Virus genome (UHGV): UHGV-0098755
DNA from: a virus
Reading direction: 5' to 3' (one strand)
Length of the DNA stretch: 64,000 nt
How positions within the stretch are numbered: the first letter of the stretch is position 1; each line of letters starts with the position of its first letter. The notes beneath the pieces were generated by a model. That model saw only the letters and a list, made by a program, of their open reading frames with translations. It was not told the DNA's origin and did not search any database. The position numbers were made by a program, and so were the translations under genes. Below, piece after piece: positions 21,485-25,666 of the stretch.

Positions 21485-22465
21485 TTATTTTAGAAGAGTA
21501 ACCTCAGCAATTTCTTCCCAACCATTTTTGTCGGTCATAATAAAGTCAGCAAGATAAAGAGCAGTACGCAGTGAAACATTGCGTAAACGATTAACATTAA
21601 CTTTCATCCATGATAATGCTTTATAAGTTTCTTCATCAGAAAGACCGCGCTTTTGCATCATGTCAGTTGAAAGAATAACATCTTCAACCCTGACCATAAT
21701 TTCTTCATTAGTGTGAACACCCAAATCTAAATAAACCGAGCGGGACACTAATGCTTGTAAGTGTGGAGCAAGTTTAGTACCACGGTCTAATTCGCGGTCA
21801 ATGTCAACGTTTGTGATAAAAACAATCGTTCCTTTAAATTCAAACTCACGGTCAATGCCTTTTTCTTCTAAGTAAGAAGATGCAGTGCTCCAGCAGACTT
21901 TACGGGTCTCTCCAGTGTCCAGAGCAGCTTTTAGAAGATTAAGAATGTCCATATCAGAGAAAACATCCACATCATCAATCAAAAGGACAGAATTCTCTTC
22001 ACGATTATTCCAAAGCTGTTCATAAAGACCAATACCAGAGATTTTACCATTAATGCTTTTATATTCAATGTATCCATTATCATTTGCTTTATTTAAAGCT
22101 TTATCTAAAGAATACGTTTTACCAATACCTGCTGCGCCAGAGATAATTAATGAACGAATATTTCCATTAATAATACCATTCGTCATCATTCCCATAACAT
22201 TAAATCTTTTATTAATGCGGGTTTTCATATCTTCATACGATTCTTTAACTTCTTCAACTTTTACACCATCATATGAAATATCTGATTTGTAAACCCAAAC
22301 ACCGCGACGTTTACCGTCAATTTCAACAAAAACTTTACCATCTCCTTGTGCATCTACCGGAGCATTATCTGGGAACCATTCGCCTAAGAGCTCAAAAGTT
22401 CCAGAGATTTCTTTACCGAAGTAGATACCCTTATTGATAGTTACAGTTTTCATTTTATTCTCCAA
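21485..22465 (-). CDS. P-loop NTPase (AAA-like) of unknown function
   Basis: 326 aa; Walker A SGAAGIGKT and Walker B VLLIDDVD. Confidence 0.6.
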   Translation of the reverse strand: MENKMKTVTINKGIYFGKEISGTFELLGEWFPDNAPVDAQGDGKVFVEIDGKRRGVWVYKSDISYDGVKVEEVKESYEDMKTRINKRFNVMGMMTNGIINGNIRSLIISGAAGIGKTYSLDKALNKANDNGYIEYKSINGKISGIGLYEQLWNNREENSVLLIDDVDVFSDMDILNLLKAALDTGETRKVCWSTASSYLEEKGIDREFEFKGTIVFITNVDIDRELDRGTKLAPHLQALVSRSVYLDLGVHTNEEIMVRVEDVILSTDMMQKRGLSDEETYKALSWMKVNVNRLRNVSLRTALYLADFIMTDKNGWEEIAEVTLLK

Positions 22466-22488: not shown

Positions 22489-22521
22489 AATAGTATCACA
22501 CTACTACCCTGCTGTAAACAA
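22489..22521 (-). promoter_or_regulatory. T4 early-type promoter upstream of the P-loop protein gene
   Basis: TGTTTACA ... TGATACTATTACCCTATCAAAAC. Confidence 0.5.
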
Positions 22522-22522
22522 T

Positions 22523-22786
22523 TTATTTTAATGTTTGCCAAATTTTTACTGCTTCGCGACGAGATACTTCTACGGCGCCAAGTTCTATAGCTTTTTGGCG
22601 TCGCCGAGCGTGTAAGTCATAATGTTTAATGCGTTTATCTTGAAACCAAGAACGTTTCATTCCTATTGCTTCTGCCATTTCGTGAAGCTCTTCAATATCT
22701 CCATCAGTGAACATATGACAATTTTTAGTTGGATGACCGCGAAGTTTCCATCCATGATTCATTAAAACATCTACGTAAACTGTCAT
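22523..22786 (-). CDS. hypothetical protein (nrdC.11 position)
   Basis: 87 aa ORF. Confidence 0.45.
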   Translation of the reverse strand: MTVYVDVLMNHGWKLRGHPTKNCHMFTDGDIEELHEMAEAIGMKRSWFQDKRIKHYDLHARRRQKAIELGAVEVSRREAVKIWQTLK

Positions 22787-22932
22787 TGATTCTTCTCCAA
22801 ATAAGTTTCGATAATTTTCTGGGCGAGATAAACCGCGTTATCTTCAGTTGCGTCTTCTAAGAAACTTTCAAAACACTCTGAAATTTCTTCTGTATCAATC
22901 AACTTTTTTACTTCAATTGGTGTAATTTTCAT
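22784..22932 (-). CDS. hypothetical small protein
   Basis: 49 aa ORF (below track cutoff) read by hand; stop overlaps next gene's ATG. Confidence 0.3.
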
Positions 22933-22965
22933 TTTGTTTTCCGTTTAAGTGTTTGTTTTGATAGT

Positions 22966-23000
22966 TGTATAGTACCATAAAGCTTTATGCTTGTAAACCA
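22966..23000 (-). promoter_or_regulatory. T4 early-type promoter (conserved cassette)
   Basis: GTTTACA ... TGGTACTATACAACTATCAAAAC. Confidence 0.5.
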
Positions 23001-23015
23001 CTTTGTGAAAAATTT

Positions 23016-23048
23016 TTGAAATAAAAAAGGGGACCTCTAGGGCCCCTT
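23016..23048 (-). terminator. intrinsic terminator after the 161 aa gene
   Basis: GC-rich hairpin then U6. Confidence 0.55.
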
Positions 23049-23057
23049 TGTGTTGAT

Positions 23058-23543
23058 TTATTCCATTTCTACTATATGCATGTTCTTTTTGCTATCAAAA
23101 TATATGTTTTTAACTATTAACTCAGAATTAATTGGCAGTAAAAACTCTCTTTCATAATCTACCATACAAAGATTATCATAAAGCTTGTTAAGCTTATCAT
23201 CGTCAGTTTGGCCAGATTCTTCAATTGCGATTAAATTTTCTAAAATGTCAATCATAGCAGTCGAATAGTCGAAAACGTTTGCATTTTTTAACACTACTAA
23301 AACATTAGTCATATAGCGTTCTGCCGCAAACGTTTCAGCTATATGAGACTCACTGCTAAAGGAAGTTATTCTTTTAAATTTGATTCTCCTATTAACTTCA
23401 AACTTATAAGATAGCACTTCCTCTATTGTAAGTCCTCTAAAAAGCACGTCTTTAATCTCAAGTTTGTCTTTAATGTAATCATTAACACGCTTATGATTAA
23501 AATCATTAATTTTGTTGCCAAGGCATTGCATTAAAATATGCAT
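23058..23543 (-). CDS. hypothetical protein with ADP-ribosyltransferase-like R / S-x-S / E-x-E motif spacing
   Basis: 161 aa; FRG (~aa 36), SFSSES (~aa 62), YEREF (~aa 130); own promoter and terminator; motif match by eye only. Confidence 0.35.
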   Translation of the reverse strand: MHILMQCLGNKINDFNHKRVNDYIKDKLEIKDVLFRGLTIEEVLSYKFEVNRRIKFKRITSFSSESHIAETFAAERYMTNVLVVLKNANVFDYSTAMIDILENLIAIEESGQTDDDKLNKLYDNLCMVDYEREFLLPINSELIVKNIYFDSKKNMHIVEME

Positions 23544-23587
23544 TGTATTCTCCTCAATTTTTAAAGAGCAATTAATTAACTACACAT

Positions 23588-23621
23588 ATATTATAATATG
23601 CTTTGCGATAGAAGTAAACAA
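23588..23621 (-). promoter_or_regulatory. T4 early-type promoter for the 161 aa ART-motif gene
   Basis: TGTTTACT ... CATATTATAATAT. Confidence 0.45.
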
Positions 23622-23641
23622 CTTTGTGACGTCATTTTAAA

Positions 23642-23669
23642 CAAAAAAAGGGGAGCCCGAAGGCTCCCT
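23642..23669 (-). terminator. intrinsic terminator after the nucleotidyltransferase-like gene
   Basis: GGGAGCC-TTCG-GGCTCCC hairpin then U7. Confidence 0.6.
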
Positions 23670-23670
23670 A

Positions 23671-24684
23671 TCATTTATAATAACTTCGGTGGTTTTCAAG
23701 ATAAACCCTCTCAAGGAAGTCATCCCAGAAACCCATGTCTACTTTTTGCTGCATACCGTTCTTAGAAGCTTCAATTGATGCTGCTTCTACTTGATCGACC
23801 ACATCTTCCAAAAACTCTTGAACCGTTTTAAATGGATGTTTACCAAGCTTCACGTCGAGAATAAATGGAGCGTCTTGGAGTGGATAGACTAAGTCACCAG
23901 TTTTGTAAATTTCCAATAGTTGGAGTCCACCACGACAAGCATGACTCAGAGCTTTCCAGTCAATACCCTCATTCGCTTCAGCCTTACGAGCGCGTTCACC
24001 ATATTCGGCATCAAGTTTATTCAAAGACTGCTTAAGCTCAATAAGAGAAAGTGTTGTCTGATATTTACGACCCAACACGGTATAAAACGTTTGTGGGCCT
24101 GTTTTCTCATGATTATGGAATACCCATTCGCAGAATTCGTTCTCTGGAAGACGATGCTTAATATCTTCAACTTTAGTGCGACGTTGCTTAATAGAACCAT
24201 CTTCTTGGTAATCAACCCACTGGTCAGGGATTTGATTAACTACTTTCAATACATCACGTAATGCGGCCAAACGAGAACCCTTGACACCGTATTTAGAAGC
24301 TTGCTTGCGAACATATCCTAAATAGGATTTCATGTTAGTCGTATAAAAACGAGAACGATTGTCTTGAATGAACTTCCATACATCAGGCAAATCAGATTTA
24401 ACTACCAGTTCAGGTGGAGTGTGGAGCATATCCAATGCTACAGTTTCACCATCTGCTGCTAATTTAAAGAAATACTTAAGACTGTACAGTTCATGGTCAA
24501 TATCATCTTTAGTGTTTTTAGATGATGTGTTGTTAGTGTTTTTACTCATATGCTCTTTAACATTTCCAATAAGAATATCACGAGCAGGAGGAACAAAGAT
24601 TTCTTTAAAATCTACATCAGATTCTGGAGTAGAAGTTCCATAAAGATGACTACCAAAATAGCTTTTCATTACTGTTTTCATCAT
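23671..24684 (-). CDS. Pol-beta-superfamily nucleotidyltransferase-like protein
   Basis: 337 aa; N-terminal YFGSHLYGTSTPESDVDF matches the GS-x(9-13)-DxD nucleotidyltransferase signature; helical C-terminal half; terminator hairpin after stop. Confidence 0.55.
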   Translation of the reverse strand: MMKTVMKSYFGSHLYGTSTPESDVDFKEIFVPPARDILIGNVKEHMSKNTNNTSSKNTKDDIDHELYSLKYFFKLAADGETVALDMLHTPPELVVKSDLPDVWKFIQDNRSRFYTTNMKSYLGYVRKQASKYGVKGSRLAALRDVLKVVNQIPDQWVDYQEDGSIKQRRTKVEDIKHRLPENEFCEWVFHNHEKTGPQTFYTVLGRKYQTTLSLIELKQSLNKLDAEYGERARKAEANEGIDWKALSHACRGGLQLLEIYKTGDLVYPLQDAPFILDVKLGKHPFKTVQEFLEDVVDQVEAASIEASKNGMQQKVDMGFWDDFLERVYLENHRSYYK

Positions 24685-25142
24685 TCAGCCTTATATTCAA
24701 TAACAGGACATACTTTAGCTTTACGCGCTTTTAAAAATTCGACGATAATAGATTTCTTGGGTTGAATAGGAGGTAAACCTTTATACGCCCTATCAATATT
24801 TTCTACGTGTAAAGCATAGTCCTTTTTCCATTTATAATCTTTATATTTTTCATGCAGTTGTGCAGGAATAACAAATGAACCAATAATAAGTAAAACAAGC
24901 AAAATGGCAAGTATAAATGCTGATGGAATAAGAGTCCATAAACTACCAAAAATAAGCCATTTCTGTATGATTTCTGCGCAGATGATAGTTAGACCTGCGA
25001 GTATAGTACATCCGAAAAAAGAAACGAAAAATGTAGGGATAACAATAGACCAAAAGTATGCGCACAGCGTCTTAGGTCGTTGCCATTCATCGTTAAACAA
25101 TTTGAATAATTTATAGTGCCAAGAGTTTTCATTAATAATCAT
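24681..25142 (-). CDS. membrane protein (about 3 TM helices)
   Basis: 153 aa, three long hydrophobic segments; overlaps the nucleotidyltransferase gene start by 4 nt. Confidence 0.55.
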   Translation of the reverse strand: MIINENSWHYKLFKLFNDEWQRPKTLCAYFWSIVIPTFFVSFFGCTILAGLTIICAEIIQKWLIFGSLWTLIPSAFILAILLVLLIIGSFVIPAQLHEKYKDYKWKKDYALHVENIDRAYKGLPPIQPKKSIIVEFLKARKAKVCPVIEYKAE

Positions 25143-25144
25143 AA

Positions 25145-25666
25145 TTATCCTTTCATTGAAGGTGTAACAGTTGTTAAATATTTAATCATAGCTTCAGCTT
25201 CTGATTTTGATAATGAAATTTCTCCATTGTTTTGACGAATAGAAATAAAATCCGGATGACGGTCACCACCGGCTTTTAAAACACACATATAAGTATCAGA
25301 TTCGTCTTCGATATTTGAAATGATTGAAGCAGTTCCACACGAATGTGGTTTTTGATAAATCAATACAGCTTTTCTTCCACCGTTTGACTGTTCATAAACT
25401 TTTAACACATCAAACAAATCACTTCTTTTATCAATAGCTAAGATGTTATTTTCATCTTCAATGTTAAATCCTTCGGATACTTCATAAAGTGTTACCCATA
25501 AATCACCTATATCGATAGTAGCATTTACTTTTCCATGACTTTCAAGAGCATGACAAATTTTCTTGATTTCGTCATAACTCATTTTAATAATATCATCTCC
25601 TTGAATAAGGAAGATGTCATTTTTAAATTCAACACGAATTAAACCACTTTCACTTGAAATAAACAT
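25145..25666 (-). CDS. hypothetical protein, tandem paralog B
   Basis: 173 aa; shares C-terminal block (...EAEAMIKYLTTVTPSMKG) and internal GFNIE motif with upstream 185 aa ORF. Confidence 0.5.
   Translation of the reverse strand: MFISSESGLIRVEFKNDIFLIQGDDIIKMSYDEIKKICHALESHGKVNATIDIGDLWVTLYEVSEGFNIEDENNILAIDKRSDLFDVLKVYEQSNGGRKAVLIYQKPHSCGTASIISNIEDESDTYMCVLKAGGDRHPDFISIRQNNGEISLSKSEAEAMIKYLTTVTPSMKG

Follow-up and report, generated by a model that had tools for sequence, protein, structure and literature searches.

A shortened Mod-family ADP-ribosyltransferase gene in an accessory cassette of virus genome UHGV-0098755

An open reading frame (ORF) encoding a protein of 161 amino acids (aa) was examined in UHGV-0098755, the genome of a T4-like phage, of which a stretch of 64,000 nucleotides (hereafter the window) was analysed. 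The gene lies on the minus strand (coordinates 23058..23543, stop codon included), and the ORF list, homology and a structural model made with AlphaFold2 (AF2) together identified its product as a shortened member of the Mod family of mono-ADP-ribosyltransferases (ARTs), which includes ModA and ModB of phage T4. The original prediction, made from the sequence by eye, had described the protein as reminiscent of the cholera-toxin-like R-S-E class of mono-ARTs, to which T4 Alt, ModA and ModB belong, on the basis of three motifs, FRG, SFSSES and YEREF. These were all present in the ORF, as F35-R36-G37, S61-F-S-S-E-S66 and Y130-E131-R132-E133-F134, and the class was borne out by homology to both ModB and ModA with the three motifs aligned in register; the relationship extends beyond a resemblance to the class, as the protein belongs to the Mod family itself. 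It is likely that the gene encodes a third, shortened Mod-type R-S-E mono-ART that is expressed early in infection, ADP-ribosylates arginines of host proteins and has the mobility of an accessory cassette.

Homology, catalytic residues and predicted fold

In pairwise BLASTP comparisons, the window protein shared 30% identity over 142 aa with T4 ModB (NP_049636.1, 207 aa; E 3e-15) and 28% identity over 152 residues with T4 ModA (NP_049635.1, 200 aa; E 4e-10), and PHROG 832 (phrog_832), named 'RNA polymerase ADP-ribosylase', was matched at E 1.2e-23. A profile-profile comparison of the short clade with 21 ModA/ModB-type sequences using hhalign returned a probability of 99.6% (E 8.5e-25) across residues 2-150. 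The Pfam family PF26816 (Mod_ADP_RT) is precomputed on the cluster of orthologues (P0001), on two further relatives (P0002 and P0003) and on bona fide ModB clusters; the Pfam copy scanned here was evidently without PF26816, and family membership of the window protein was read via these homologues.

The motif pattern alone is statistically weak, and the caution with which it had been put forward as a weak, eye-based match was justified. The window has 93 stop-to-stop frames that are 100 aa or longer, and a loose version (R, 18-35 residues, S-x-[ST], 50-90 residues, E-x-E) was present in seven of them and in 4.8% of shuffles of the 161-aa protein, although a strict version beginning [FYW]-R-G was found in one of the 93 frames and in 0.01% of shuffles. 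The question was therefore settled by homology, not by the motif. That an unrelated small phage protein matches by chance would fit the frequency of the loose pattern, but this explanation is refuted by the agreement of sequence, profile and fold evidence on the Mod family, and its probability is negligible.

The Mod family is narrow. When 1.84 billion representative proteins were searched exhaustively with HMMER, only 15 relatives were recovered, none of them longer than ModA/ModB, and a word-indexed protein search recovered only three; the alignment used for structure prediction therefore has only 30 rows. The nearest relatives beyond the 161-aa clade were proteins of 175-189 aa (P0005-P0009; E 1e-13 to 7e-10) encoded by single Mod genes of uncultured T4-like phages. 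They are 26-33% identical to the window protein and 15-25 residues longer, with N-termini that are also shorter than those of ModA and ModB, and a rough neighbour-joining tree placed them together with the 161-aa clade on a branch apart from ModA and ModB. The P0006 gene is located at the canonical mod locus of its phage, between soc/Y01E and dda.1/dda. When sequences in the PDB were searched, the single protein sequence gave no match with phmmer and the sole match to the family profile was the Vis toxin, at a marginal E of 0.089, hence no structure of a Mod-family protein appears to have been solved.

In the R-S-E clade, the arginine holds NAD+ in position, the S-T-S strand lends stability to the pocket and the invariant glutamate promotes cleavage of the bond between nicotinamide and ribose, with E-x-E being typical of arginine-modifying members (PMC8120803). 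The NAD-positioning arginine is R36 (codon at 23436..23438, minus strand), which corresponds to R73 of ModB and R72 of ModA and was invariant in alignments of 19 and 30 sequences; the R73A form of ModB is catalytically dead (PMC10468400). The S-x-S/T motif, S61-F62-S63 (23355..23363, minus strand), aligned with S99-F-T101 of ModB and S96-A-S98 of ModA. S61 was invariant, position 63 was occupied by serine or threonine across the family, and residues S61-S63 are on a predicted beta-strand formed by residues 60-63. The E-x-E motif, E131-R132-E133 (23145..23153, minus strand), corresponds to E171-Q-E173 of ModB and E163-Q-E165 of ModA; the middle residue differs, being Q in ModB and R in the window protein, whereas both glutamates were invariant, also inside the short clade. 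The invariant columns of the 19-sequence alignment, which includes T4 ModA and ModB, include R36, G37, S61, Y77, E131 and E133, and the motif residues noted in the original prediction are thus kept in homologues. Column mapping further placed F91-D92-Y93 (23265..23273, minus strand) at the aromatic pair F127/F129 of ModA, which are listed in a review (PMC8120803), so that R36, F91, Y93 and E133 of the window protein correspond to R72, F127, F129 and E165 of ModA. A family profile that included the window protein aligned its YRG, TSFS and E-x-E with YRG, TSTS and E-A-E of Vis (4xzj). The C3-type enzymes, which modify asparagine, differ in carrying Q-x-E in place of the E-x-E of the window protein.

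An AF2 model of the window protein, built with 30 family sequences, had a mean pLDDT of 92.6 and a pTM of 0.85, and the protein is predicted to have the ART fold, with a split beta-sheet core and an NAD cleft. When this predicted model was compared with the PDB using Foldseek, the best 50 matches were all R-S-E ARTs (E 1.7e-5 to 4.9e-4), including XopAI, C3bot1/2, Certhrax, Tre1, ExoS/ExoT, Vis, iota toxin Ia, VIP2, CDTa, C3larvin and C3stau2; relative to these solved enzymes, the Mod family adds a helical hairpin, which comes after the aromatic strand and before the E-x-E motif. ART folds were also returned among the viral models in BFVD, in which the orthologue from phage ACG-C40 matched with a TM of 0.98, ModB and ModA models had TMq values of 0.77-0.88, and many viral ARTs matched. 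A 142-aa 'Adenylribosylating enzyme' from another Enterobacteria phage T2 record (BFVD A0A2Z5WKD6), with 30% identity over 97 aligned columns, is presumably ModA or ModB with its gene called too short.

The predicted core fold of the window protein matches that of ModB, itself the product of an early phage gene, with the R, S-x-T/S and E-x-E motifs in register, but the protein is 46 residues shorter than ModB, and its residue 1 aligned at residue 38-39 of ModA and ModB. In the model of a ModB representative (P0014), four helices (5-14, 18-31, 34-45 and 50-62) precede the arginine strand, whereas in the window protein only two (3-7 and 17-27), equivalent to the last two of ModB, precede the corresponding strand (29-37), helices 5-14 and 18-31 of ModB having no counterpart. 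The N-terminal shortening is therefore a difference of architecture in which the catalytic core is kept.

A mis-called start or a truncation artefact was considered as the source of the short N-terminus and was ruled out. Entries in the ORF list open with the earliest start codon that follows a stop, hence the ORF is not extendable in the 5' direction; no alternative start follows the upstream stop, and direct reading of the sequence revealed a good Shine-Dalgarno sequence, GAGGAG, 6 nt 5' of the ATG (23550..23555, minus strand). An artefact is also ruled out by the identical start point of relatives sharing 95%, 93%, 61% and 53% identity with the window protein. For this comparison the relative called at 181 aa (P0002) was read from an internal 'MHILMACLG', as its start looks to have been set too early.

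The short Mod gene is under purifying selection. The ratio of nonsynonymous to synonymous substitution rates (dN/dS) was 0.12-0.18 when the window gene was compared with the orthologues in T2 and ACG-C40, and about 0.14-0.20 for deep pairs involving the 53-61% identical relatives where dS could be estimated. The orthologues in ACG-C40 (L001 3658..4143) and T2 (L002 3177..3662) differ from each other by ~7.5 nonsynonymous and 0.5 synonymous changes, giving a nominal dN/dS of 3.4 from counts too small for a test; the other estimable pairs were at 0.12-0.20.

Cassette anatomy and distribution

The genetic context of the gene was examined by side-by-side reading with T4, in which the spacer between nrdC.11 and nrdC.10 is 114 bp long and contains one stem-loop, a T-run and an early promoter but no ART gene. 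In the window, the ART gene is located between nrdC.11, encoding an RlaP-type nucleotidyltransferase (23671..24684, minus strand), and nrdC.10, encoding an AAA-type ATPase (21485..22465, minus strand). Along the minus strand, nrdC.11 is followed by a stem-loop, GGGAGCCTTCGGGCTCCC, with a T-run (23651..23668), which is the putative nrdC.11 terminator, is identical in T4 and marks the upstream boundary of the insertion. An early-type promoter-like site, GTTTAC-17 nt-TATAAT (23619..23590, minus strand; 10 of 12 matches in a consensus scan), comes next and forms part of the cassette; its -35 element is identical to the T4 early -35 consensus, GTTTAC (PMC1524935). The ART gene is followed in turn by a second, terminator-like stem-loop, GGGGCCCTAGAGGTCCC, with a T-run (23022..23046, minus strand; hairpin 23046..23030), which is the downstream boundary of the cassette. 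Past this stem-loop the T4 promoter sequence takes up again almost base for base, the resumed nrdC.11/nrdC.10 intergenic sequence consisting of a T-run and TTTACA-17-TACTAT (22960..23029, minus strand). The early promoter and terminator that the original prediction had assigned to the gene were thus both found, as consensus matches, and its location away from the mod locus (srd - modA - modB - modA.2) was also upheld, because the window holds no other Mod homologue.

Both flanking stem-loops (23668..23651 and 23046..23030) precede a promoter-like site, so that the gene is bracketed by two stem-loop/early-promoter units; T4 has an empty site, and the junction falls exactly where its one unit (T4 locus L005 1415..1545) is split in the window (22960..23668, minus strand). 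From the sequence, this arrangement reads as the insertion of a promoter-gene-stem-loop unit inside the T4 stem-loop/early-promoter unit, a modular insertion of the PeSL (promoter-early stem-loop) type. Modular shuffling mediated by PeSLs has been described in T4-type phages, for the RB49/phi1, PST and nt-1 phage pairs (Arbiol 2010, PMC2839356; Comeau 2014, PMC4122927), and the nrdC.11/nrdC.10 site of Tequatrovirus was not found in the text of either paper; recombination would also account for the junctions at the window site.

Relatives of the gene occupy other positions. The gene for the 61% identical relative is flanked by regA and the DNA polymerase gene 43 (L007 5001..5546, L008 2946..3491), and that for the 53% identical relative is downstream of an RlaP gene, matching the arrangement in the window, indicating that the short Mod gene moves among variable sites. 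The relative with 61% identity comes from an uncultured T4-like phage (Logan assemblies), and its 181-aa call probably begins 24 codons too early. A functional link between the ART gene and its neighbours, which include genes for a DUF4031 protein, a 49-aa ORF and the RlaP-type nucleotidyltransferase, was also considered but is unsupported, as T2 has the ART gene without the DUF4031 gene and the 61% identical relative is placed between regA and gene 43.

Orthologues with at least 90% identity were identified by tblastn in 44 of 50,697 phage records, and the next tier of matches consisted of ModB and ModA at less than 33% identity. All carriers are of the Tequatrovirus type, with Escherichia, Salmonella and Citrobacter as hosts, and T2, ACG-C40, EP01, W143 and VEc20 are among them. 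As the flanking region was matched in 713 records, the cassette is present in ~6% of them. Both ACG-C40 and T2 carry intact ModA (200 aa) and ModB (207 aa) genes at the mod locus in addition to the short gene, which rules out the possibility that the latter is a substitute for a lost ModB. Alt is presumably also present in the carrier phages, as in T4, and the short Mod protein would then be a fourth ART. The orthologues are named in public records as 'RNA polymerase ADP-ribosylase' (RefSeq YP_006986647.1, with a note of ModB), 'NAD--protein ADP-ribosyltransferase', 'modA_2' or 'modB_2', hence public annotation already places them in the family, and the classification is not new.

Further features were seen around the cassette. 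A second insertion, absent from T4 and T2 (22523..22932, minus strand), contains a 49-aa ORF (phrog_6888; 22783..22932, minus strand) that overlaps the gene for an 87-aa DUF4031 protein (22523..22786, minus strand). It is followed by an early-promoter-like sequence, TTTACA-17-TACTAT (22518..22490, minus strand), ahead of nrdC.10. In the ORF list, nrdC.10 opens at a TTG (MENKMKTV...; 22453..22465, minus strand), and the T4-like start is an ATG four codons further in with GGAG ahead of it. At the position, downstream of nrdC.11, of the T4 HNH homing endonuclease gene mobD (24681..25666, minus strand), the window encodes two other proteins, one a predicted membrane protein of 153 aa (phrog_944) and one y05I-like and 173 aa long (PF24449/PF24448), and mobD was not seen there.

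Proposed function and alternative explanations

The gene is most likely transcribed right after infection from its own early promoter, and the canonical ART cleft is most likely where its product binds NAD+. Within this cleft R36 would position NAD+, the S61-F-S63 strand would shape the pocket, and E133 would be the catalytic glutamate with E131 steering transfer to arginine. ADP-ribose would be put on arginine side chains of one or more Escherichia coli proteins, and the modification would add to the host takeover brought about by Alt, ModA and ModB. The cassette would move between hyperplastic regions of T4-like genomes via recombination at stem-loop/early-promoter units. ModA ADP-ribosylates R265 of the RNA polymerase alpha subunit, and the targets of ModB are S1, EF-Tu, trigger factor and L2. 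As the catalytic core is kept but the two N-terminal helices are missing, the target set of the short Mod protein probably differs from those of ModA and ModB. A stronger form of this proposal, in which loss of the helices has re-targeted a functionally distinct fourth ART of T2-type phages to a substrate untouched by Alt, ModA and ModB, is rather doubtful; the new substrate may for example be a host defence or toxin protein, and the use of NAD-capped RNA might also differ.

A number of observations weigh against the proposed explanation. The cassette promoter and terminators are putative, being consensus matches. The TMq values to solved ARTs were only 0.44-0.55, with identities of 6-15%, and ~38 N-terminal residues of ModA and ModB, comprising two predicted helices, are absent. 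Scans of Pfam-A and NCBIfam gave no match for the window protein, although these negatives are uninformative because T4 ModA and ModB themselves also gave nothing useful there. In Escherichia phage BW-1 (OR125554.1; L014 401..885) the gene is frameshifted into coding sequences of 97 aa and 65 aa, and it is therefore dispensable in at least that phage, if perhaps only under laboratory conditions; a 65-aa database protein (P0004) resembles such a C-terminal fragment. Literature searches found no paper describing or testing a third Mod paralogue, and matches to 'ModC' were molybdate transport genes. Finally, the serine of the R-S-E triad of ModA has been named as S109 (PMC8120803), which corresponds to A74 in the window protein. 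However, family members differ from one another at the S109 column (A, V, R, S, L, H, G, Y, C), whereas the invariant serine is S96 of ModA, S99 of ModB and S61 of the window protein, aligned with the TSTS of the Vis toxin, and the literature assignment may point to the wrong serine.

The missing helices, the frameshift in BW-1 and the absence of the gene from most relatives could alternatively be taken to mean that the gene is a dead or decaying mod remnant encoding an N-terminally truncated pseudo-enzyme or decoy. This is improbable because all catalytic residues are invariant and the gene is under purifying selection (dN/dS 0.12-0.18); moreover, the short N-terminus is kept down to 53% identity, a compact fold is confidently predicted, and the gene has its own Shine-Dalgarno sequence, promoter-like site and terminator-like site. 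Modification of a nucleic acid or small molecule in place of a protein arginine, as with guanine in Scabin, pierisin and ScARP, is more improbable still. Some members of the R-S-E clade do act on DNA or tRNA (PMC8120803), but such enzymes have Q-x-E with a tryptophan (PMC8120803, table) where the window protein has E-x-E, and its closest relatives, ModA and ModB, modify protein arginine.

The remaining alternatives retain the enzyme and change its role. With an identical fold and chemistry, the protein might serve counter-defence, inactivating a toxin, a defence effector or some other anti-phage protein of the host rather than retuning transcription or translation. Such a role would suit an accessory cassette in a hyperplastic region that is found in ~44 of ~713 related records, and there are precedents, as T4 Alt inactivates MazF (PMC8120803), Alt and a ModA orthologue have been implicated in evasion of Mokosh type I, and nrdC.1, from the same genome region, inhibits Septu (preprint 10.1101/2025.11.20.689424). 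The case is nevertheless one of analogy, as no defence system is tied to the short Mod gene, and the targets of ModA and ModB themselves are RNA polymerase and the translation machinery; counter-defence is possible but is the less expected role. It is less probable again that the protein resembles ModB in using NAD-capped RNA besides NAD+, with the result that RNA chains become linked to host proteins (RNAylation). The window protein is slightly closer to ModB (E 3e-15) than to ModA (4e-10), and ModB RNAylates rS1 and rL2 (PMC10468400), but the short clade groups with neither ModA nor ModB in the rough tree, and the features that allow ModB to accept NAD-RNA are not defined at the sequence level.

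An ADP-ribosylating member of the Mod family that adds to host takeover remains the preferred explanation. The T4 ARTs are a classic model of host takeover, in which interest has been renewed by RNAylation by ModB and by the links of Alt and ModA to defence evasion. A natural minimal Mod enzyme that is present in T2 and its relatives and not in T4 provides a comparison for deciding which parts of the fold determine target choice. If the protein is indeed a functionally distinct fourth ART, it would confer a conditional advantage on the phage on particular hosts. Where T2 and T4 differ in host range or in sensitivity to defence systems, the short Mod gene is a candidate cause.

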